DNA from: Gammaproteobacteria bacterium | Lineage (GTDB): Bacteria > Pseudomonadota > Gammaproteobacteria > Poriferisulfidales > Oxydemutatoraceae | Direction: 5' to 3' | Length of the DNA stretch: 64,000 nucleotides | Assembly: GCA_028817225.1 (NCBI GenBank) | Contig: JAPPQC010000047.1 | Span: 9,284 to 73,283 of the forward strand | In this document: positions 4,526-26,600 of the stretch, piece after piece | Layout of the letters: each line of letters begins with the position of its first letter | Position numbering within the stretch: position 1 is the stretch's first letter | The notes under the pieces: generated by a model | Seen by the model: only the letters and a program-made list of their open reading frames with translations | Told to the model about the DNA's origin: nothing | Database searches by the model: none | Position numbers and translations under genes: made by a program

Positions 4526-4673
4526 TCATCCCGTTGACGGCGAACCCTCGCCGCCGCCCGCTTTCCACAACGGCGCGGGCAACCGCCGAAACAAGCGAGT
4601 GGCCCGACGCGCCCGCTCCGGCATAGTATAACCTCGGGCAGCCGCATCCGTGCATAACTCCAAGGCTTTCATT

Positions 4674-4679
4674 ATAATG
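4674..4679 (+). promoter_or_regulatory. Candidate -10 element (TATAAT) 10 nt upstream of the first GT4 gene start, inside a low-GC 150-bp intergenic region
   Basis: The sequence cattataatgg immediately precedes the ATG at 4690. An alternative -10-like TAGTATAAC lies at about 4623-4631. No clear Shine-Dalgarno is present. Confidence 0.25.
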
Positions 4680-4689
4680 GCAAAGCAAC

Positions 4690-5844
4690 ATGTCCGAAAT
4701 GAACAACCTGAACAACCCGCCGCGACAATCCTTCACCTGGGCATTGATTGGCCAGGCTTGCGCGGCGATATCCATACCGCCCAAAGGCTGGGGCGCAGTG
4801 GAAACCATACTATGGGACTACAAAACCTGGCTTGAAAAACTCGGGCACAAGGTGGTCATCATCAATACGCACGACCGGGGCGAAATTATTGACACAATCA
4901 ACCGGCATCAACCCGATGTCGTGCATTTGCATCAACACGATTTGGCCGATGTTCTGAACAAAATCCGCGTTCCGGTGAAAATCTTCACCAGTCATTCCGG
5001 GTACAGGATATACAAACTGGGCGCCTTTCTGTCTCTGCACAAATATCTCGTTCAATATCCGGGAGACGGCCTGATTGTTTTTGCCCTGTCTCCGGCCCAG
5101 AGAAAGACGTTTCTTGAACTCGGATGCAACCCCTCCGAAGTTTTTGTTACACCAAACGGCGCCGATCACCGCAGATTCAACTTCCGCGAAACGCCGCTGC
5201 ACAAAAACCGCAGCATCTATCTGGGAAGCATTGACCACAACAAAAGACAGCACCTCTACCAGGCGATTGATTCCGTTGATTTTGTCGGGCCTCACGACAA
5301 CAAAAAATTCGACAAAACGCGTGAAAACTATCTGGGAGAGTGGGGGCGCGCCACCCTCTACGAGCATTTGTCGGATTACGCCAACCTGGTCATCCTGAGC
5401 AAAGTCGAAGTGGGCGCCCCGCTCGTCGTCCTGGAGGCGCTGGTCTGCGGGCTGGGCGTGGTCGTCAGCACCGCCGCATCGGGCAATCTAGACACGAAAC
5501 TGCCGTGGATTACCGTCATCCCGGACGAAAAGATAACCGATGTCGCCTTCGTCGAGGCCGAGATTGCGCGCAACCGTGAAATATCGCTGCGCCACCGCGA
5601 ACAGATACGCGAATACGGCATCGGGAATTTCTCCCAGGAGAAACTGGTGCCCCGCTACGCGGATTTGTGCCTGAAACTGCACGCCGAAAGAACCGCGCGG
5701 CAGATTCCCTCCGACCGCAAGACGGCCACTCACCGCAGGCTGCGGTATTTACTGCCGGCCTTGCCGTCTCTCCTTTTTGTTTATGTTCCTTACCACCTGA
5801 TTTTCAGATCGCTTCCCTACAGAATCCGCTGTTTATTCCGGTGA
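4690..5844 (+). CDS. Glycosyltransferase, GT4-like (GT-B fold), paralog 1 of 3
   Basis: The N-terminal motif IPPKGWGAVE...LEKLGHKVVII fits the GT4 PPxxGGxE...GHxV pattern. The C-terminal motif LVILSKVEVGAPLVVLEALVCGLGVVVS fits the GT4 E-x7-E/EAxxxGxPV region. GC is visibly lower (~50%) than the flanks. Confidence 0.6.
   Translation: MSEMNNLNNPPRQSFTWALIGQACAAISIPPKGWGAVETILWDYKTWLEKLGHKVVIINTHDRGEIIDTINRHQPDVVHLHQHDLADVLNKIRVPVKIFTSHSGYRIYKLGAFLSLHKYLVQYPGDGLIVFALSPAQRKTFLELGCNPSEVFVTPNGADHRRFNFRETPLHKNRSIYLGSIDHNKRQHLYQAIDSVDFVGPHDNKKFDKTRENYLGEWGRATLYEHLSDYANLVILSKVEVGAPLVVLEALVCGLGVVVSTAASGNLDTKLPWITVIPDEKITDVAFVEAEIARNREISLRHREQIREYGIGNFSQEKLVPRYADLCLKLHAERTARQIPSDRKTATHRRLRYLLPALPSLLFVYVPYHLIFRSLPYRIRCLFR
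5416..5600 (+). repeat. 185-bp segment of GT paralog 1 that is 100% identical to 7829-8013 in paralog 2
   Basis: Direct comparison of the three paralog 3' halves shows a mosaic of blocks identical at the DNA level. Confidence 0.8.
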
Positions 5845-5850
5845 CAAGCC

Positions 5851-7083
5851 GTGCCTGAAACGCAAAGCGAAATTTCAAGAAAGCGCCCGTCGGTCGCGGT
5901 GCGCGTCGGCGGGGTCGTGCTCGGCGGCGGGCATCCGGTCGCGGTGCAGTCCATGACCAGCACCGACACCGCCGATGTGGAAAAAACCGCCGCGCAAATC
6001 GCTGAACTGGCCGCGGCCGGCTCGGAACTGGTACGAATCACGGTCAACAACGACGCGGCGGCGCGCGCGGTGCCGCGGATTGCCGAGCGTCTCGCGGCGA
6101 AGAATGTCGCGGCGCCGCTGGTCGGCGACTTCCACTTCAACGGCCACAAACTGCTGCGCCAGCACCCCGAATGCGCCGAACACCTCGACAAACTTCGCAT
6201 CAACCCGGGCAATGTCGGGCGCGGCGCGCGCCGCGACCCGCAATTCGCGCAGATGATTGAAAGCGCCTGCCGCTTCGGCAAGCCGGTGCGCATCGGCGTC
6301 AACTGGGGCAGCCTCGACCAGGACCTGCTGAAACGCAGACTCGACGACAACGCGGCGCTGCCGCAGCCGCATTCGCTCGAGGCCGTCACGCGCGCGGCGC
6401 TGATTGAGTCGGCGCTCGACAGCGCGCGCCGCGCCGAGCAACTTGGCCTGGCGCACGACCGCATTGTGCTGTCGTGCAAGCTCAGCGATGTGCGTGAACT
6501 CGTCCGCGTCTATCGCCGCCTCGCCGCGCTGTGCGACTACCCGCTGCATCTCGGCCTGACCGAGGCCGGCCTCGGCAGAAAGGGCGTCGTCGCGTCGGCG
6601 TCGGCGCTGGCGATACTGCTGCACGAAGGCATCGGCGACACCATCCGCGTCTCGCTGACGCCGGCGCCGGGCGAAAGCCGCACCGAAGAGGTGCTGATCG
6701 CCCGCGAAATCCTGCAAAGCCTCGGACTGCGCTCGTTCGCGCCGGCCATCACCGCCTGCCCCGGCTGCGGGCGCACGACCAGCGACCACTTCCGGCAACT
6801 GGCCGGCGACATACACGACTACCTCGAACGCAAAATGCCGGAATGGAAAGACAAGCACCGCGGCGTCGAGAACATGAAAGTCGCGGTGATGGGCTGCGTC
6901 GTCAACGGCCCCGGCGAAAGCAAGCAGGCCAACATCGGCATCAGCCTGCCGGGTTCGGGCGAGCGCCCGGCGGCGCCGGTCTATATTGACGGCAAGCGCA
7001 GCGTAACGCTGTCCGGCGACAATCTGGCCGAGGACTTCAAGCGCCTGATTGACGAATATGTCGCCGCAAACTACCAATCCTGA
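5851..7083 (+). CDS. ispG: 4-hydroxy-3-methylbut-2-en-1-yl diphosphate synthase (IspG/GcpE)
   Basis: Full-length GcpE with the [10 protein letters not shown] cysteine motif and a GTG start (MPETQSEI). It has high GC like the core genome. Confidence 0.95.
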
Positions 7084-7099
7084 ATCATGGCAAAGCGGC

Positions 7100-8269
7100 G
7101 TGCCTGAAACCGGTATCCCGGACAACCCGCCGCGGCAATCCCTCACCTGGGCACTGATTGGGCAGGCTTACGCGCCGGTGTCCATACCGCCCAAAGGCTG
7201 GGGCGCGGTGGAAAACATCATTTGGAGTTACAAAACTTGGCTTGAAAAGCTCGGGCACAAGGTGGTGATTGTCAACACGGATGACCGGCGGAAGATTATT
7301 GACACAATCAACCGGTGCCGACCCGATATCGTGCATGTGCATCAGCATAATTTCGCCGATATTCTGAACAAAATCCGCGTCCCGGTGAAAATATTCACCA
7401 GTCATTCCGGGTACAGGTTGGGCAAACGGGCCACCTGGGGGTCTCTGCAAGAACATTTCGTTCAATATCTGAAAGACGGCTTGTTTTTCTTTGTCCTGTC
7501 TCCGGTCTGGAGAAAAGTGTTTCTCGACTGCGGATACAACCCCGATGAAGTCTTTGTGACACTGAACGGCGCCGACCACCGCAGATTCAGGTTCCGCAAA
7601 ACGCCGCTGCATGAAAATCGCAGCATCTACCTGGGGCAGATCACGGTCAACAAGAAACAAAGCCTCTACCAGGCGATTGATTCGATTGATTTCGCCGGCC
7701 CTCTGAGTGATGACAAAAAATTCGACAAAACGCACAAAAATTATCTGGGAGAATGGACGCGCGACACTCTTTACGAGCATTTATCGGACTATGCCAACCT
7801 GGTCATCCTCAGCAAAGCCGAAGTCGCTGCCCCGCTCGTCGTCCTGGAGGCGCTGGTCTGCGGGCTGGGCGTGGTCGTCAGCACCGCCGCATCGGGCAAT
7901 CTAGACACGAAACTGCCGTGGATTACCGTCATCCCGGACGAAAAGATAACCGATGTCGCCTTCGTCGAGGCCGAGATTGCGCGCAACCGTGAAATATCGC
8001 TGCGCCACCGCGAGCAGATACGCGAATACGGCATCGAGAATTTCTCCTGGGAGAAACTGGTTCCCCGCTACGCGGATTTGTGCCTGAAACTGCACGCCGA
8101 AAAAGCCGCGCGGCAGGGCTTTTCCGCCCGCAGCGCGGACACCCTCCGCAGGCTTCGGTATTTGCTGCTGGCACTGCCGTCTCTCTTCTTTCATGCGGTT
8201 CGCCGTCTGATTTTCACATCACTCCCCCGCAAAATCCGCCGCCTGTTCCGGATAGAAAACCATGCCTGA
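7100..8269 (+). CDS. Glycosyltransferase, GT4-like, paralog 2 of 3
   Basis: Homologous to paralog 1 over its entire length. The start is chosen as GTG 7100 (VPETGIPDNPPRQ), by analogy to paralog 3 (MPEINSPDNPPR) and to avoid overlap with ispG. The ORF track begins at TTG 7049, and an ATG at 7058 is an alternative. Confidence 0.6.
   Translation: MPETGIPDNPPRQSLTWALIGQAYAPVSIPPKGWGAVENIIWSYKTWLEKLGHKVVIVNTDDRRKIIDTINRCRPDIVHVHQHNFADILNKIRVPVKIFTSHSGYRLGKRATWGSLQEHFVQYLKDGLFFFVLSPVWRKVFLDCGYNPDEVFVTLNGADHRRFRFRKTPLHENRSIYLGQITVNKKQSLYQAIDSIDFAGPLSDDKKFDKTHKNYLGEWTRDTLYEHLSDYANLVILSKAEVAAPLVVLEALVCGLGVVVSTAASGNLDTKLPWITVIPDEKITDVAFVEAEIARNREISLRHREQIREYGIENFSWEKLVPRYADLCLKLHAEKAARQGFSARSADTLRRLRYLLLALPSLFFHAVRRLIFTSLPRKIRRLFRIENHA
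7894..8144 (+). repeat. 251-bp segment of GT paralog 2 that is 100% identical to 9066-9316 in paralog 3
   Basis: Direct sequence comparison. The identity ends abruptly on both sides, as expected for a gene-conversion tract. Confidence 0.8.
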
Positions 8270-9416
8270 AATCAATAGCCCGGACAACCCGCCGCGACCA
8301 TCCCTGACCTGGGCGCTGATCTCGCCGGTCATTGACGGCTCCATGCCGCCCAAAGGGCAAAGTTCGATAGAAACCATTGTGTGGGACTACAGCACCTGGC
8401 TGAAAAAACTCGGGCACGAGGTGGTCATCATCCACACAGACGACCGAAGCAGGATTATTGACACAATCAACCGGTGCCGGCCCGATATCGTGCATACGCA
8501 TGCTATCCAGCTTGTGTACCTCCTGAACAATATCAGCGTTCCTGTGAAAATTTATACCATACATCAACCCGAGACGGACGAATCATGGAAAGGGCAGGTA
8601 TTCGTTTATATCAAAAACACACTTGCTCAATACCTGAAAACCGGCCTGTATGTCTTTGTCATGACCCCGGCCTGGAGAAAGGTGTTTCTCGACCTGGGAT
8701 ACAACCCCGCCGAAGTCTTTGTGGTGCAGAACGGCGCCGACCACCGCAAATTCAAATTCCGCAAAACACCGCTGCATGAAAACCGCAGCATCTATCTGGG
8801 GCTTGTCACGCGCCGCAAGAGGCAGCACCTCTACCAGGCGATAGACTCGGTTGATTTCGTCGGGCCATACCATGACAGCGAATTCGACAGATCGCGCAAA
8901 AATTATCTCGGAGCGTGGACACGCGACACTGTCCATGAACACTTGTCGGATTACGCCAACCTGGTCATCCTGAGCGAATCCGAGATTGCCGCCCCGCTGG
9001 TCGTTCTGGAGGCGCTGGTTTGCGGGCTGGGCGTTGTCGTCAGCACCGCCGCATCGGCCAATCTGGACACGAAACTGCCGTGGATTACCGTCATCCCGGA
9101 CGAAAAGATAACCGATGTCGCCTTCGTCGAGGCCGAGATTGCGCGCAACCGTGAAATATCGCTGCGCCACCGCGAGCAGATACGCGAATACGGCATCGAG
9201 AATTTCTCCTGGGAGAAACTGGTTCCCCGCTACGCGGATTTGTGCCTGAAACTGCACGCCGAAAAAGCCGCGCGGCAGGGCTTTTCCGCCCGCAGCGCGG
9301 ACACCCTCCGCAGGCTGCGCTATTTGCTGCCGGCTCTGCCGTCTCTCTTCTTCCATGCGGCTCGCCACCTGATTTTCAGATGGCTTCCCTTCAGGATTCG
9401 TCGCTTGTTCCGGTGA
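8262..9416 (+). CDS. Glycosyltransferase, GT4-like, paralog 3 of 3
   Basis: Same family as paralogs 1 and 2. Its start overlaps the paralog-2 stop. The C-terminal 130 aa are nearly identical to those of paralog 2. Confidence 0.6.
   Translation: MPEINSPDNPPRPSLTWALISPVIDGSMPPKGQSSIETIVWDYSTWLKKLGHEVVIIHTDDRSRIIDTINRCRPDIVHTHAIQLVYLLNNISVPVKIYTIHQPETDESWKGQVFVYIKNTLAQYLKTGLYVFVMTPAWRKVFLDLGYNPAEVFVVQNGADHRKFKFRKTPLHENRSIYLGLVTRRKRQHLYQAIDSVDFVGPYHDSEFDRSRKNYLGAWTRDTVHEHLSDYANLVILSESEIAAPLVVLEALVCGLGVVVSTAASANLDTKLPWITVIPDEKITDVAFVEAEIARNREISLRHREQIREYGIENFSWEKLVPRYADLCLKLHAEKAARQGFSARSADTLRRLRYLLPALPSLFFHAARHLIFRWLPFRIRRLFR
9066..9316 (+). repeat. 251-bp identical block in GT paralog 3, copy of 7894-8144
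   Basis: See the paralog-2 repeat feature. Confidence 0.8.
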
Positions 9417-9435: not shown

Positions 9436-10221
9436 TCACCAGTCGCCGTACAAATACTGAAGCAGCGCAACACCCGCGGCGACGGCGGTTGCGACGCGCA
9501 GAATGCGCGGCCCCAGTCCGGTCGGCCTGAAACCGGCCTCCGCCGCGCGGCGGACTTCGTCGTCGCTCAAACTGCCTTCCGGGCCGACCAGCAGGTGCGC
9601 GCGGCGCGGCCTGGCGCGCACCGTGTCCGGAATGGCGTCGGCGCCGGGGTGCAGCACGAACGCCGGTTCATCGCCGGCGACGGGCGGCAGCGCCGCCAGA
9701 TCAACCGGCTCGGCCAGTTCCGGCAGCGCGACGCGGCCACTTTGCTCGCACGCGCCGATGACGATGCCGCGCCAGTGGCGAAGCCGTGCGGCGCCGCGCA
9801 CCGGCGCGCTGCGCGATGTCACCAGCGGCTGAATGCCGGAGACGCCCAGTTCGGTGGCTTTCCGGATTGCGGAGTCCATGTAATCGCTCTTGCACAGCGC
9901 CAGATACAGGCGCACATCCAGCGCCGGTTCGGCGGACGGCGCGAGCCGGCTTTCACAGCGGATGGCGCTCGCGCGGCGCGACACCGACTCGACCCGGCAC
10001 AGAAACTCGTCGCCGAGATGATTGAAGACGCGCACCATGCCGCCCGCGCGCATCCGCAGAACATGAAGCAGATGGTGATGGGCGCCGTCCGCGACCTCAA
10101 GCCCGGCGCCCTCGCCAAGGCGTTGTTCCAGGTAAATGCGCGGCAGATGCTCCGCCGCGCGTTCCGCGCCGGCGGCGCCCGGACGGGCCGCGGATGCCCG
10201 CAGCGCGCGGCGCGCGGTCAA
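9436..10221 (-). CDS. rsmE: 16S rRNA (uracil1498-N3)-methyltransferase RsmE
   Basis: N-terminal PRIYL(EQ) and C-terminal [13 protein letters not shown]...GPRILR motifs match RsmE. The ORF track extends it to 10401 across ahcY, which is implausible. The likely start is TTG at 10221, overlapping the ahcY TGA. The start is uncertain. Confidence 0.75.
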
Positions 10222-11531
10222 TAGCGGTAGTGGTCGGGCTTGTACGGGCCGTCCACCGGCACGCCGATGTAGTCGGCCTGTTCGGCGGTCAGTTCCGTCA
10301 GTTTCGCGCCGACCTTGTCCAGGTGCAGGCGGGCGACCTCCTCGTCGAGTTTCTTCGGCAGCACATGGACGCCGCTGTCGTAGCCACCGCCGTTTTGCCA
10401 CAGTTCAATCTGCGCCAGCACCTGGTTGGTGAAGGAGTTCGACATCACGAAACTGGGGTGGCCGGTGGCGCAGCCGAGGTTGACGAGCCGCCCCTCGGCC
10501 AGAAGAATCAGATGCTTGCCGTCGGCGAAGATGACATGGTCCACCTGCGGCTTGATGTTCTCCCAGCGGCAGTTCTTCTTCAACGAGGCGACATCAATCT
10601 CGTTGTCAAAATGGCCGATGTTGCAGACAATCGCCTGGTCTTTCATGCGCTGCATGTGGTCGTACGAAATGACGCGGTAGTTGCCGGTCGCGGTGACGAA
10701 AATATCCGCCGTGTCGGCGACATCGTCCAGCGCCACCACGCGGTAGCCCTCCATGCACGCTTGCAGCGCGCAAATCGGGTCCACCTCGGTCACCAAGACG
10801 CTGCAACCCTGCGCGCGCAGCGACTGCGCGCAGCCCTTGCCGACATCGCCGTAGCCGCAGACAACGGCGGTCTTGCCGGCGATCATCACATCGGTGGCGC
10901 GCTTGATGCCGTCGAGCAGCGATTCGCGGCAGCCGTAGATGTTGTCAAACTTCGACTTGGTCACCGAATCGTTGACATTGAACGCCACCGTCTTCAGCAG
11001 GCCGCGGCGCTGCATCTCGTAAAGCCGTTTGACGCCGGTCGTGGTCTCCTCGGAAACCCCCTTGATGGACGCCAGCAACTCCGGCCTGCGCTCGCAGACA
11101 AAGCCGGTCAGGTCGCCGCCGTCGTCGAGCAGCAGGTCGGGCGCCCAATCGCCGGGGCCTTGCAGCGTCTGCTCGATGCACCACCAGTATTCCGACTCGC
11201 TCTCGCCCTTCCACGCGAACACCGGAACGCCGGTGGCGGCGATGGCCGCCGCCGCGTGGTCCTGGGTCGAGAAGATGTTGCACGACGACCAGCGGACACT
11301 GGCGCCCAGTTCAATCAGCGTCTCGATCAGCACCGCGGTCTGTATCGTCATGTGCAGGCAGCCGGCGATGCGCGCGCCTTGCAGCGGCCTGTCGCCGGCG
11401 TAACGCTCGCGCAGCGCCATCAGCCCCGGCATCTCGGTCTCGGCAATCGCAATCTCCTTGCGCCCCCACCCGGCGAGGGCGATGTCGGCGACGCGGTGGT
11501 CTTCTTTCAGGTTTTCTGCCGGTTGGTTCAT
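10218..11531 (-). CDS. ahcY: S-adenosyl-L-homocysteine hydrolase (adenosylhomocysteinase)
   Basis: Begins [38 protein letters not shown] and carries the NAD-binding [10 protein letters not shown] motif. It is 437 aa from the ATG at 11531. The upstream ORF extension is rejected. Confidence 0.95.
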
Positions 11532-12843: not shown

Positions 12844-13398
12844 ATGGCGGCAAAAACAACCCCGGTCTGCGAGTTCGGCCTGGCCGCCGCGGACTTCAGC
12901 CTGCCCGGCACAGACGGCAAAACGCACGACCTGCGCGGCTGCATGGGCGACAACGGCCTGCTGGTGATGTTCATCTGCAACCACTGCCCGTTCGTCAAGG
13001 CGATACAGCGCAAACTGGTGCGCGACACCAACGACCTGCTGAAACACGGCATCCACTCGGTCGCCATCATGTCGAACGACCCCGCCGAATACCCGGAAGA
13101 CTCGTTCGACAACATGAAGAAGGTCGCCAAACAATTCGGCTACCCGTTTCCCTATCTCTACGACGAAAGCCAGCAGGTGGCAAAAACCTACGGCGCCGTC
13201 TGCACGCCCGACTTCTTCGGCTACAACAAGGACTGCAAACTCCAGTTTCGCGGGCGCCTCGACGACAGCGGCCCGGTGAAGACCGGCGACAACGCGCCGC
13301 GCGAACTCTACGAAGCGATGAAGCAGGTCGCCGAGACCGGGCGCGGCCCGAAAAAACAGACACCGAGCATCGGCTGCTCAATCAAGTGGCGGCGCTGA
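12844..13398 (+). CDS. Thioredoxin-fold protein (AhpC/TSA/redoxin family, CxxC)
   Basis: Contains the CNHCPFV active-site-like motif. It is 184 aa with no signal peptide. Confidence 0.75.
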   Translation: MAAKTTPVCEFGLAAADFSLPGTDGKTHDLRGCMGDNGLLVMFICNHCPFVKAIQRKLVRDTNDLLKHGIHSVAIMSNDPAEYPEDSFDNMKKVAKQFGYPFPYLYDESQQVAKTYGAVCTPDFFGYNKDCKLQFRGRLDDSGPVKTGDNAPRELYEAMKQVAETGRGPKKQTPSIGCSIKWRR

Positions 13399-13557
13399 CC
13401 GGCGCCGGGCTTGTTCCGCCGGTTTCAGATTAAAGCCGCCGGGCCGTTTCTCCGGCGCCGGTGCAAACGATTGCGGCGCTGACCGGCGCCGGGCTTATTC
13501 CACCAGTTTCAGATTGGGGCCGCCGGGGCGTTTCTTCGGCGCCGGCGCCGAGGATTG
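13390..13557. repeat. Imperfect tandem duplication (2 x ~84 bp, ~85% identity) of the sspB 3' end
   Basis: Copy 2 (13474-13557) encodes the real sspB C-terminus (...PGGPNLKLVE*). Copy 1 (13390-13473) is a degenerate duplicate in the intergenic spacer. It begins exactly at the convergent redoxin stop codon. Confidence 0.75.
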
Positions 13558-13926
13558 CCGCGCCGGCGATTGCGGTTGCGGCGGTTGCGCCGCCGGCGGC
13601 TGCGCGCCGGACGACGGCGCCTTGTCCGACAGCATCATGCCCTGCATGTTCTCGCGCGCGTAAATCATCAGCACCGCGTCCAGCGGCACCACGACCATCT
13701 CGGCGCGCCCGCCGAAACGCGCGCTGAAAGAAACCGCCTCGTCGTCCATCACAAAATCGCGCACCGCGTCCGCCGAGATGTTCAGCGTAACCAGGTTGTT
13801 CCTGTCGTGGCCGGGCGGCATCCGCACGCCGGGGTGCAGCAGATTGAAGACAATGTGCGGCGTGCAGCCGTTGTCCACAATCCACTGGTGGATCGCGCGA
13901 AACAGATAGGGCCGCCGCGAGGTCAA
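13495..13926 (-). CDS. sspB: ClpXP protease specificity-enhancing factor / stringent starvation protein B
   Basis: The N-terminus MTSRRPYLFRAIHQWIVDNGCTPHIVF matches SspB. The C-terminal tail is unstructured, Pro/Gln-rich and ends in an XB-like terminus. Confidence 0.9.
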   Translation of the reverse strand: MTSRRPYLFRAIHQWIVDNGCTPHIVFNLLHPGVRMPPGHDRNNLVTLNISADAVRDFVMDDEAVSFSARFGGRAEMVVVPLDAVLMIYARENMQGMMLSDKAPSSGAQPPAAQPPQPQSPARQSSAPAPKKRPGGPNLKLVE

Positions 13927-23602: not shown

Positions 23603-26600
23603 GCCTTTCCTCCTGCACCGCGCGCGGCGTTCGGAAAACGCCGCCGCAAAAACATGCACAGCGCGCCGAGCATCAGCATCAGCAGCCCGGCAACACCGAA
23701 ACTGCCGCCGCCCGCGCCGACTCCGCCGCCGCCACCGGCGCGCAGCCCGAGCGGATCGTGGACGACGCCGTTGGGAAGCGCCTCATCCTCGTCATATTCG
23801 CCGCCGTCGGCGACATAAACCACCAGGCAGGCGTCGCCGCCCGACTTCGGACGCCTGAGACCGCCGCTGTCGCGGTACGGGCTGTCCGCAGCCCCGGTGT
23901 CGTCGGGGCACGCGCCGTTGGCGAGCGGTGCAAAGCCATAGTCGTTGCCGCCGGGCAAGGCCGCGAACGGCTCGGAGGCGCCGTCTTCGCGGTATTTGAA
24001 CAGCGCCAGGTTGGCGTCGGCATAGAGCGATTCCGGCAGCGGAATGATCACGCCGGCGCGGCCTCCGGCCACCGTCGTCGCGGTCGAGTTTTGCGCCATC
24101 CCCGATGAGTAATCCACATCATACACGCTGAAATCATACACCACTTCAAAGCCCTCGACATCGAAGAACGACGCCGCCCAGGTGTCGTACGACGGCGCCG
24201 CGCCGGGCATCAGGTCTTCCCTGTCCGCCGCGCGCCTCAGCGTCGCCGCGCCGAGGCGCACGCTTTGCCCCGGCAGCACCGGGCGGATGTGGTGCCACGA
24301 ATCGGCGCCCGCAAGGCTCCCGTCCGTGTCCAGCACCGCCACCGGCAGGCCGCTGTCGTCTTCGTACAAATCGCTGTCGTCGGCGATGCCGTCCCGGTCG
24401 CCGTCGCTTGCGGCCACAGCCGCCAGCGCATGGGCCGACGGCACAATCGGCCACGAAACCGTCACCGTCGCGGTGGCGCCGCGCCCGGGCGCCGAGATGC
24501 GCAGCGTCACCGAAGTCGGCGTCGTAACCGCCGCCACCGTCAGCGCGACTTCAATGTCGGCGCCCGAACGCACCGCCGACAGCGCCGACAACGCGGCGGC
24601 GCCGGCGCCGGTCGCGGTCACCACAGGCGCGAGGCTCGGGTGCGGATTCTCGACCGGCAGTTGGACGGCGAACACGCCCGCCGACAGCACCGAACGCACA
24701 TCGCCGTCGCCGCGCCCGGCGCCGCTGAACAGCACCGGCGAACCGACCGTCGGCGGCAGCGAGTCGTCGCCAAGCCGCACCACCGTCGTCTGCGTCGCCA
24801 GCCCCAGCGAATAACTGTTTGCCGTCAGCGCGGCGGTGTCGGTGCCGGCACGCCACAACGACGCGCCGGCGCCCGACAGCCCGGCGATGCCCCAGGTGCG
24901 CGAAGCGGTCACGGCGCTTTTTGCGACCGTGAACGAAAAGGTTTTCCTGCCCGTCTGCATCTCACCGGTCGTGAACGACAGCGTCAAATCCGACGCCGCC
25001 TCGGGGCCGTCGTGGTTCGCCTCGACCGCAACCGTGGCCGAGTCGGCGTCGGCGGCCAGGAAGAACAGCCGTTCGCTGTTCATGTTCAATTCCGGCACGC
25101 GGACGATGCGCTGCTCAGACAGCGTGCTTGTCGTGGCCTGCGGCAGCCAGTAGCCCGCCGCGTCCGCCGCCAGCCACCCGATCCGGTGCTCAACGCCGGC
25201 CCGGATGTCGGCAAAATCCACGACCGCGCAGCCGCCGCGCGCCACCGGCGCCCGGTAATTGGCCGGGAAGCGCCCGGTGCAGCCGTAGCCGGGTTCGCCC
25301 GGCGCCGGCGTGTAGCCGAAGGTGTCGCTCAGGTACCAGGCGGTGAGCCTGGCGGCGACGGTGCCGGTCGTGCCGATGCCGAGATGGGCGTCGGCGCCGA
25401 GCACGCGGATGCCCGAATACGCGATGCGGGCGATGTCCGAAACGCCGCGGCCCAACACGACTTGCGGCAGCGCCGCACGCTCGGCGTCCGACAGCGGCGC
25501 CAGCGGATTGCCGCCGTATTCAATTTCCGCCGCATCCGGAATGCCGTCGCCGTCGCCGTCGTCGGTCAGGCCCTCGGCCACGCGCAGTTCCAGAACCCGC
25601 GCAATCCGGTTGGGCGCGGCGTTCAGGCCGCGCAGGTCGGCGTTGTCGTAAATGCCGGCGCCGGCGGCGGGCGGCGTATAGCGCACCCACACCGCGGTTT
25701 CGGTGCCCTGAATCACCGTGTCCAGTTGCAGTTCTATGCCGGTGATGCGCGCCGCGCCCGGTTGCGCCGAAACGCGGTACGCCGCCCGCTCGACGGCGAC
25801 GCTGGCGCTCGTCATTTGCCCCATCTGATGGCCCGGCAGCACCTCGAAACCTTCCAGCGCATCGCCGTCGGCGAGTTCCGCGCCGGCGGCCAGCGCCCGC
25901 GCCGGTTCGTCGAACCGCAGCCACAAACGGCTGCCGGCGTAGCCCGCGCCGTGCAGGCGCGGCGGCGAGACATCGGACACATCCGCCGACGCCGACAAAC
26001 AGCCCGTCATCGTCTCGTCGGTGTCGTAGTACGGGCAATCCTCAAGCGTCCTGGTCATCGGCGCCATGCTTTCCGTCGCGCCGGTGTCGCGCAGGAAAAT
26101 CGCATAGCCGCGAACCATCCGTTCCGGGCGCTGCACGCCGTTGTATGCGACGACAACCCTCGCCTGCGACATCGAACTGGCCACCGACGAAGGCGGGATG
26201 CCGGCGGCGAGCGCGCCGTCCAGCACATTGCCGATTGGCACCGCCCCCGCCCTCGTCAGCGGCGGCTGATTCCTGCCGGGCGCCGAATACAGCGCCAGCG
26301 CGGCGCTTGAAATGGTGACCGGCTCGGTGAACGCCAGCAGATAGCGCAAATCAAACACGCCGGTGTTGGGCGCGCGCTCGACCGACGACAGCACCGAAAA
26401 CTCGGCCACCTCCGGCGCGCCGCTCTCCGGAACGGTCGCCGTGAAAGTCATGTCGTCGTTCTGCGTGTTGCCGAAAATGTCGGTCAGCCGCCCGCCCGGT
26501 ATCGTGAACCGGAAACGCTCGCCGCCGACCGCCGACTCGCCGTTGTCGAGCGTGCCCGTCAGGCGCGCGCGGAATGTCAGCGTCGTCTCGTCCTCGCCGA

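Follow-up and report, generated by a model that had tools for sequence, protein, structure and literature searches.

The 64,000-nucleotide stretch analysed here (the window, part of contig JAPPQC010000047.1 of a Gammaproteobacteria bacterium) contains three paralogous glycosyltransferase (GT) genes, P1, P2 and P3, that stand on both sides of the housekeeping gene ispG. Analysis of the open reading frames (ORFs) places P1, ispG, P2 and P3 on the + strand in a head-to-tail row, the spacers measuring 6, 16 and −8 nt. This bears out the order given in the original prediction, a reading of the letters that had proposed three GT4-type paralogs around ispG. The locus comprises the following features:

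4673–4689, + strand: putative ispG-type promoter/leader, now before P1, with a −10-like TATAAT (4673–4678) and an 11-nt leader with ATGGCAAAGC (4677–4686)
4690–5844, + strand: P1, GT4-like glycosyltransferase paralog of 384 amino acids (aa), placed between the putative ispG promoter and ispG
5416–5600, + strand: P1 copy of a 185-bp tract, identical to 7829–8013 in P2
5491–5600, + strand: 110-bp run of exact identity between P1 and P3 (9066–9175)
5667–5677 (P1), 8080–8090 (P2) and 9242–9252 (P3), + strand: interior copies of GTGCCTGAAAC in the GT cores, in a frame other than that of the start motif (C-L-K)
5692–5841 (P1), 8102–8266 (P2) and 9264–9413 (P3), + strand: extra basic C-terminal tail of 50–55 residues, net charge +9 to +11, predicted helical
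5836–5861, + strand: P1-to-ispG junction, made up of TTCCGGTGA (last codons and stop, with a Shine-Dalgarno-like GGTGA inside), the 6-nt spacer CAAGCC and GTGCCTGAAAC, the ispG start
5851–7083, + strand: ispG (GcpE, 4-hydroxy-3-methylbut-2-enyl diphosphate synthase), intact, 410 aa, Pfam GcpE 378 bits
7084–7099, + strand: 16-nt ispG–P2 spacer of P1-like leader sequence, with a second ATGGCAAAGC copy at 7087–7096
7100–8269, + strand: P2, GT4-like paralog, 389 aa counted from GTG 7100
7904–8154, + strand: P2 copy of a 251-bp tract, identical to P3 9066–9316
8262–9416, + strand: P3, GT4-like paralog, 384 aa, the most divergent of the three, with an 8-nt overlap with P2
9066–9316, + strand: P3 copy of the 251-bp tract, with single-nucleotide polymorphisms (SNPs) in other assemblies at 9092, 9095, 9107, 9128, 9152 and 9277

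The longest ORF of P2 opens at TTG 7049, inside ispG, and gene callers give 403–406 aa; we place the start at GTG 7100 because the homology of all GT copies points there. The normal stop of P2 is lost (CGG-ATA), and reading continues to the TGA within the start motif of P3, ATGCCTGAAAT, which overlaps the P2 stop by 8 nt. In P3 the glycine-loop motif is altered (KGQSSIE instead of KGWGAVE), and the 3′ end of this gene varies among strains. Overall DNA identity amounts to 83% for P1/P2, 80% for P2/P3 and 78% for P1/P3. The GT genes are indeed lower in GC content than ispG (67%) and the flanks (65–72%), but the value of about 50% first given for them holds only for their 5′ halves; the 3′ parts are at ~ 60% and the whole genes at 54–56%.

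Every sequence compared with the window is a metagenome assembly, and its close relatives are metagenome-assembled genomes (MAGs) of Gammaproteobacteria from Stylissa sponges. The runs of 185, 251 and 110 bp previously reported as identical between the paralogs are each correct to the base. Synonymous divergence (dS), computed by codon, offers a more quantitative comparison of the N-domain with the core (residues 243–334). It drops from 0.41 in the N-domain to 0.029 in the core for P1/P2, from 0.62 to 0.076 for P2/P3 and from 0.69 to 0.108 for P1/P3. For orthologs in the other species, N-domain dS is 0.43–0.48 and core dS 0.20–0.32, with a baseline between the two species of 0.17 for ispG and 0.20 for the gene of a substrate-binding protein (SBP). 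Hence, silent sites of the core are free to vary between species, though they are nearly identical within the window genome. Codons for the same amino acid differ at 2–7 of 87–89 positions in the core versus 47–48 of 173–200 elsewhere (Fisher p = 1e-6 to 2e-4). In a Sawyer-type site permutation, the longest concordant runs span 30 sites for P1/P2 (p < 0.0005) and 74 sites for P2/P3 (p < 0.0005), with p = 0.0015 for P1/P3. The same test flags common N-domain fragments between alleles of different strains and species.

The two parts of the genes also group differently. The 5′ part groups by position across species, with P1 87.8% identical to L002_a and 79.8% to P2, and P2 83.5% identical to L002_b. 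The core groups by genome (96–98% identity within the window, 91–94% across species), P1 sharing 98.2% with P2 and 90.9% with L002_a. The L002 genome displays no within-genome excess of core identity (a/b core 91.6%), from which conversion there appears to be lineage-specific or older. Among assemblies with flanks 99.6–99.95% identical, nearly all differences fall into the 3′ blocks of P2 and P3 and can be ordered as a nested series. Neither tract is homogenised in L006; L007 and L029 share the P1 = P2 state; in the window, homogenisation extends to P1 = P2 = P3, and P3 has a P2-like tail. In L006, the P2 copy of the 185-bp tract carries 7 SNPs at window 7903–7951 (P1 equivalent 5490–5538), and tract ends differ between paralog pairs and between strains. 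The dS contrast, the run tests, the segment discordance and the strain-polymorphic tracts thus support recent or ongoing gene conversion, or cassette-like recombination, as had been suggested from the identical blocks. The associated pattern of a homogenised 3′ part and a variable N-terminal half is found in the window, but not throughout, as the y and z copies of L034 have a 100% identical N-domain stretch.

The N-domain dN/dS, the ratio of non-synonymous to synonymous divergence, is 0.44–0.47 between paralogs and 0.15–0.24 between orthologs, which indicates relaxed or diversifying pressure. Gross positive selection was considered and rejected, no dN/dS value being above 1. GC at third codon positions is higher in the converting core (0.76–0.77) than in the N-terminal halves (0.62–0.69); this may reflect GC-biased gene conversion, and amino-acid composition or codon effects could also explain it.

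Comparison of the locus across relatives, proposed along with the original prediction, reveals that both the number and the arrangement of GT copies differ among strains and species:

Window, L029, L006 and L007 (same strain cluster): GT-ispG-GT-GT
L002, L003 and L004 (another species, dS about 0.17–0.20): GT-ispG-GT
L005 (same species, downstream flank ~ 99%): ispG, of which only the 3′ end is on the contig, then two GTs 77–84% identical to P2/P3
L034 (same species, upstream 4.65 kb 99.1%, ispG ~ 99.5%): upstream GT absent, at least three GTs downstream
L036 (another species): ispG-GT

With arrangements differing in this way, relatives do not uniformly carry the arrangement of the window with diverged, non-converting copies, the case that the original prediction had set against itself. 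L005 and L034 match the window at 99% or more in their flanks and in ispG, while their GTs have 15–49 mismatches per 100 bp. The upstream GT has been lost by internal deletion in both L034 and L036; both scars include the promoter, followed in L036 by ~ 135 5′-terminal and ~ 25 3′-terminal nt of the GT, and in L034 by a few codons plus ~ 20 nt from the 3′ terminus of the GT. Mosaicism extends to whole alleles: the x GT of L034 is a mosaic of P2-, P1- and P3-like bins, and protein P0001 is a P3 N-domain joined to an L005_b-type tail.

The surroundings of the locus allow its history to be followed. A conserved gene order runs from ATP-binding cassette (ABC) transporter genes and the SBP gene (minus strand) through GT, ispG and GT(s) to rsmE, ahcY and metK (minus strand), and on to cytochrome bc1 genes. 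ispG itself is 99.8–100% identical among strain-level contigs. Two relatives, L024 (IspG 89% protein identity) and L025 (85%), keep this neighborhood without any GT and thus represent empty sites. L026 and L025 come from one sample and are near-identical haplotypes, but L026 has one low-GC GT 8 nt after the ispG stop, replacing a ~ 200-bp spacer. As the empty sites share the same neighborhood, ispG is the resident gene, and the GT units on either side of it are additions. The view of ispG as trapped inside a duplicating array therefore has to be reversed: the gene lies in its ancestral neighborhood, and GT units joined it on both sides. Translocation of ispG into a GT array was considered as well and is rejected by the synteny of L024 and L025.

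Start motifs and junctions give a closer view of these additions. GTGCCTGAAAC occurs five times in the window, all at the GT/ispG locus: at the starts of ispG (5851) and P2 (7100), and at 5667, 8080 and 9242 inside the GT cores. The interior copies, which had been overlooked before, are kept in the GT cores of L002, L005, L010, L012 and L034. ATGGCAAAGC is found at 4677 and 7087, and its 8-mer ATGGCAAA nowhere else in the window. The boundary motif described earlier is thus present, with GTGCCTGAAAC at the ispG and P2 starts and ATGGCAAAGC before P1 and P2, but the ispG–P2 spacer measures 16 nt rather than 14. A role of ATGGCAAA as a general promoter motif of the genome was rejected, both of its occurrences in the 64 kb being at this locus. 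In relatives without an upstream GT, the promoter/leader directly abuts the ispG start, as TATAAT followed by a ~ 11-nt leader; leader and start read GATTATAATGGCAAAACACC-ATGTCTGAAACG (also written GATTATAATGGCAAAACACC-ATGTCTGAAACGCAAAGC) in L024 and CATTATAATGGCAAAAAC-ATG in L025 and L026. In the window, the same promoter/leader sequence, TTCATTATAATGGCAAAGCAAC, stands before P1, and P1 is therefore located exactly between the ispG promoter and its coding sequence. Starts of P1 (ATGTCCGAAA) and ispG (GTGCCTGAAA) are similar, so that a direct repeat of ~ 10 nt brackets the P1 insert. ATGGCAAAGC is part of this short, putative ispG-type promoter/leader, with a partial copy before P2.

Every GT unit in the clade opens with ATG/GTG-YCY-GAA-A after a related short leader, including the GT away from ispG (L013, L028), and closes with TTCCGG-TGA, followed by 5–6 nt and the next start. 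The form of the P1-to-ispG junction recurs at the GT-to-GT junctions of L005, L012 and L034, and the x-to-y junction of L034 is identical to it over 30 nt. GGTGA within CGG-TGA corresponds to the 3′ portion of a canonical Shine-Dalgarno sequence and lies 6 nt ahead of the start codon downstream; it may therefore provide each GT unit with a ribosome-binding site for the gene that follows. The deletion scars of L034 and L036 both keep exactly the GGTGA-bearing junction piece before ispG, which suggests that this piece now serves ispG translation. The ispG–P2 spacer exists in a P1-like version (window, L029, L034) and as an unrelated ~ 40-nt spacer (L005, L002). Replacement of the P2 5′ flank by P1-like sequence accounts for the two extra C-terminal residues of the window IspG, which ends in ...ANYQS where relatives end in ...ANY. 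At the other end of the protein, the M-S-x-x-x-x-E-I-S pattern of the more distant IspG P0126 suggests that the ispG N-terminus is native. A terminator scan yielded no + strand terminator-like site between the four genes. The pattern TTCCGGTGAN{5,6}RTGYCYGAAA, used for a metagenome scan, proved too degenerate: tblastn detected neither a GT nor ispG at any of the 120 loci that it matched.

By family and predicted fold, P1–P3 are GT-B/GT4-like glycosyltransferases, their activity being a prediction. PF13439 (Glyco_transf_4) matches P1, P2 and P3 at 38.5, 32.4 and 33.3 bits, respectively (cut-off 28.5). The AlphaFold model of P3, built from a 50-sequence alignment, is confident (predicted local distance difference test 89.5, predicted template-modelling score 0.87) and displays two Rossmann-like domains followed by long C-terminal helices. 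A Foldseek search with this model gave 106 matches in the PDB at E ≤ 0.001, with GT4 enzymes leading and template-modelling (TM) scores of 0.55–0.69; the top matches are BshA, the tetrahydrobiopterin (BH4) glucosyltransferase, MshA, HepE and PimA (TM ~ 0.6, E ~ 1e-10, 12–17% identity). The GT4 assignment, originally made without searches, is thus supported by both a domain match above cut-off and the structural matches. Sequence-profile search of the PDB returned nothing significant (best E = 0.16), and NCBIfam gave only weak sub-threshold matches (Agl16, stp2, SenB, BshA) and no equivalog. Compared with the GT4 structures (BshA 3mbo, MshA 3c4q, PimA 2gej, BH4 glucosyltransferase 5zes), the window copies share the GT-B two-Rossmann fold, the N-terminal glycine-rich loop, a conserved R/K pair and the C-terminal paired-glutamate motif, but differ in the spacing of the glutamates and are only 12–17% identical.

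The strongest named match of the GT copies is PHROG 33732, a phage “moron/auxiliary” glycosyltransferase (E = 8e-78 for P1, 1.5e-81 for P2 and 1.7e-71 for P3; profile positions 4–304 of 318). By tblastn, the copies are 42–45% identical to genes of T4-like Synechococcus phages (cyanomyoviruses) over ~ 80% of the protein, and 62 IMG/VR loci, some labelled giant-virus MAGs, contain relatives at 32–42% identity. The cyanomyovirus GTs of PHROG 33732 (S-CAM9 gp060, S-PRM1 gp102) are the best named sequence relatives, and the viral kinship of the family fits the lower GC of the window copies. Unlike these, the cyanophage GTs are ~ 315 aa long, lack the basic C-terminal tail and are single-copy; their neighbors are an NDP-sugar (nucleoside diphosphate sugar) pyrophosphorylase, a haloacid dehalogenase-type (HAD) hydrolase and a second glucosyltransferase. 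In P0019, P0024, P0033, P0041 and ~ 40 further database proteins of ~ 630 aa, two GT units are fused in one chain. These fusions suggest that such units frequently function in pairs; in the window, P2 and P3 have an 8-nt overlap.

Building on the directly observed family and fold, synteny with empty sites, conversion signal, strain mosaicism and junction anatomy, we propose that the locus is a strain-variable GT set around a resident ispG in a high-GC gammaproteobacterial Stylissa symbiont, shaped by recombination, a reading to which we assign a probability of roughly 70%. A low-GC GT unit, kin to virus-encoded GTs, would have been added on both sides of ispG, P1 being slotted exactly between the promoter/short leader and the start codon of ispG, and P2 and P3 being placed after its stop. 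The four genes would most likely be co-transcribed from the ispG promoter and translationally coupled. The near-invariant 3′ core, which forms the nucleotide-sugar-binding half of the predicted GT-B fold, would act as substrate for repeated non-reciprocal recombination along two routes: copies within a genome would undergo gene conversion, and strains would exchange homologous sequence. The expected outcome is homogenised cores, mosaic and fast-diverging acceptor-side N-domains and tails, and gain, loss or replacement of whole copies. The enzymes may act at the inner membrane face, where the basic C-terminal helices would hold them, and their acceptor would be linked to a lipid or to the envelope; strains would then differ in a surface glycan relevant to recognition by the sponge host or by phages.

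Several observations weigh against this proposal. On the side of the proteins, PF00534 (Glycos_transf_1) scores only 14.8–17.6 bits in all three copies, below its cut-off of 26.4; the acidic motif of the window copies is E-X8-E where E-X7-E is canonical; and the best structural matches include small-molecule enzymes (BshA, MshA, BH4 glucosyltransferase, SenB). The fused homologs P0019 and P0033 clear the PF00534 cut-off and the C-terminal fold is present in the predicted structure of P3, while E250 is invariant, E241 is nearly so, and E-X7-E spacing is found in homologs with a one-residue deletion (P0003, P0065). On the side of expression, a simple promoter scan yielded no canonical −35/−10 pair at the locus. 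The putative promoter role of the TATAAT/leader before P1 rests on position and conservation, since that scan gave no full match. With respect to the neighborhood, homologs are found elsewhere in unrelated contexts: HAD-GT-yajC in L028, a GT pair around a phosphoglucomutase/phosphomannomutase (PGM/PMM) gene in L027 and a place beside EgtB/EgtC-like genes in L017. The syntenic neighborhoods contain no polysaccharide, flippase or lipopolysaccharide genes near the locus. Finally, consensus building in metagenome assembly could have homogenised the paralogs: the full 251-bp block is not reproduced in other assemblies, and an exact-protein look-up found the window P3 protein on no other record.

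This last point leads to an alternative according to which a short-read assembler collapsed near-identical paralog or strain variants, or polishing did so, and the mosaics are chimeric contigs. All loci are metagenome contigs, some of which end inside the repeats (L006 and L007 in P3, L008 and L009 in P1 or P2). The 251-bp P2/P3 block differs by 6 SNPs in L029, by 5 in L007 and by many in L006, and at exactly 5 sites the window P3 departs from L029, L007 and L006, having the P1/P2 state at each. Over 9.2 kb, 6 SNPs are the only differences between the window and L029, which is a 464-kb scaffold of a separate assembly. Still, L029 and L007, which were assembled independently, both show the 185-bp P1/P2 block, and assemblies made independently from different samples (L029, L007, L008, L032) repeat it along with most of the identity between the P2 and P3 tails. 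Moreover, core dS is low in every genome examined, other species included, and mosaic tracts are also found in N-domains and between species. An artefact could lengthen tracts but not produce the overall pattern, and we consider it quite improbable as the full explanation. Consensus building may have inflated the exact tract lengths, and some mosaics may be chimeric; that core dS is low in all genomes and that the 185-bp block recurs elsewhere argue for a real phenomenon. A second alternative needs no recombination: the cores could be kept identical by strong purifying selection, acting either on the protein or on an RNA structure or antisense gene that overlaps it. The near-invariance of the core protein across homologs of 60–70% overall identity would agree with it, as would an 81-aa antisense ORF in each block. 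Under such constraint, core synonymous sites would not be expected to vary between species (dS 0.20–0.32) and yet to be preserved within the window genome (0.03–0.11), nor segment trees to be discordant, nor tract ends to vary by pair and strain. In addition, no Rfam family matches the region, the only match at a permissive threshold being a chance microRNA one. Constraint alone is accordingly the least probable of the readings and is extremely unlikely.

Two further alternatives concern how the GT units came to lie beside ispG. A site-specific, integron-like process, in which GT circles excised from arrays are reinserted at the ATG/GTG-YCY-GAAA-Y core of GT and ispG starts, would account for junctions of uniform type and for a start motif present in duplicate. 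Every unit opens with this core and closes with CGG-TGA plus 5–6 nt, the P1-to-ispG junction and a GT-to-GT junction are identical over 30 nt, presence or absence at the same site varies in three lineages, and a GT with the same start and leader stands at a different locus in another MAG (L013, L028). However, the locus and its syntenic flanks contain no integrase, transposase or attC-like inverted repeat; no tyrosine recombinase is adjacent, the neighbors being the ABC transporter, SBP, rsmE, ahcY, metK and similar genes, and the junctions have no inverted repeats. The losses that can be examined are imprecise internal deletions rather than excisions at the core, M-S/P-E is a common N-terminus, a further ATGTCCGAAA lies at 25433, and unequal crossing-over with conversion between homologous units yields the same junctions. 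We therefore regard a dedicated mobile cassette as very doubtful. Alternatively, the GTs might be kept beside ispG by an isoprenoid-derived acceptor, such as a polyprenyl-phosphate-linked sugar, a glycolipid or an intermediate of the methylerythritol phosphate pathway. This is in line with GT–ispG adjacency in at least four lineages (ispG identity 85–100%), with the tight operon-like packing and with a basic tail suggestive of membrane association. It is at odds with the lack of GTs at the site in the close relatives L024 and L025, with the occurrence of the family beside unrelated genes and in phages, and with the absence of any other isoprenoid or glycolipid gene nearby, and seems unlikely to us.

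Recombination around a resident ispG leaves room for a more specific version, in which the GT unit is a cassette that hitchhikes on promoters. It would enter at the first codons of an essential gene that is nearly leaderless, through the ~ 11-bp ATG/GTG-YCY-GAAA-Y core common with ispG, bring a stop-embedded ribosome-binding site for the gene it displaces, multiply into arrays in which the conserved core keeps acceptor domains shuffling and, in some alleles, switch its membrane-binding tail on and off by a homopolymer tract. We see this as a speculative extension with a low likelihood; if true, it would give an obligate symbiont of animals a compact means, viral in ancestry, of varying its surface.

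As to function, GT-B enzymes bind the acceptor with the N-domain and the donor with the C-domain, and diversification of acceptors with a fixed sugar donor, put forward from the distribution of variable and homogenised halves, would fit this domain logic. The C-terminal tails of P1, P2 and P3 have no transmembrane segment and, with their charge and predicted helicity, could be peripheral membrane anchors. GT-B logic, basic tail and hypervariability together hint that the enzymes move one activated sugar to differing membrane-associated acceptors and so produce strain-specific envelope glycans, an idea we advance tentatively and with less than even odds. A surface-glycan role is only a guess, since no polysaccharide, flippase or lipopolysaccharide genes lie nearby.

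The closest analogue among known systems is the lgt locus for lipooligosaccharide (LOS) of Neisseria. There, homologous lgt genes recombine and so remodel the locus, and phase variation arises from poly-G tracts; the lgt enzymes are of GT-A type, a family other than that of the window GTs. Both loci consist of tandem GT genes, including homologous pairs, with strain-variable content. The content of lgtA–E is described as varying between strains, strain 15253 keeping only lgtA and lgtE (PMC2192810). Unlike the window locus, lgt is not arranged around an essential gene, uses no borrowed promoter and has a known product. Homopolymer tracts are found in two independent alleles among the relatives, whereas the window copies contain none of 7 nt or longer. 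P3 of L006 has an in-frame G16 at the core/tail boundary (10171–10186, ~ window 9273), near the contig end. The GT of L026 has a C10 at the same boundary (10269–10278); its ORF stops four codons later, and the homologous tail (LRLTYLYLRFHLPAL...) continues in another frame. These tracts hint at slipped-strand phase variation, or else at a sequencing or assembly artefact.

Concerted evolution by gene conversion is familiar from the duplicated bacterial genes tufA and tufB. As in that pair, paralogs within one genome are closer at silent sites than orthologs between species, and conversion is confined to discrete tracts. In contrast to tufA/tufB, only part of each GT is homogenised, and the remainder diversifies and swaps between strains, giving mosaic alleles. 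Integron cassettes share with the window GTs the organization of promoterless head-to-tail units behind one promoter with uniform short junctions, but the window locus has no integrase, no attI/attC and no sign of site-specific excision. Gene conversion between duplicates and strain-variable GT loci are both already well known. What is unusual is the combination: virus-related GTs on both sides of an essential gene, one of them behind its promoter; uniform stop/start junctions; homogenisation of half a gene together with mosaic diversification; and polymorphism of both presence/absence and copy number, at one and the same site, in several symbiont lineages. In the literature on sponge symbionts, glycosyltransferases and gene conversion we found no description of such an ispG-flanking GT arrangement.

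Sponge symbionts must be tolerated rather than eaten and face dense phages, and surface glycans are the obvious interface for both. The locus is a mappable hotspot, as strains otherwise at least 99% identical differ in GT number and mosaics, and it could be used as a strain-tracking marker and might help to determine host or phage specificity. It also offers an example of an accessory gene that secures its expression by slotting between an essential gene and its promoter, and of a gene whose conserved half gives recombination a built-in handle by which the other half is diversified.

A few minor observations accompany the locus. In L027 (7278–11122, from the same sample as L024), two GTs of 71% DNA identity, the upstream one frameshifted, flank the PGM/PMM gene, a second case of this GT family on both sides of a housekeeping gene. 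On the Candidatus Oxydemutator chromosome L017 (7945–11137), a GT homolog directly follows genes for an EgtC-like amidotransferase and an EgtB-like protein (DinB_2 + FGE-sulfatase). This arrangement resembles thiol/selenol cofactor clusters containing the GT-B enzyme SenB, and both SenB and BshA are among the weak profile and structural matches of the window copies. PADLOC defence models gave no match. The sole further ATGYCYGAAA in the window is the ATGTCCGAAA at 25433–25442. The 81-aa antisense ORF is repeated on the minus strand of each conserved block (5376–5621, 7789–8034 and 8951–9196) and is most likely a by-product of high-GC conserved sequence. Downstream of the array, an 84-bp tandem repeat (2.1 copies, 85% match) lies at 13389–13563 of the window and is also present in L005.

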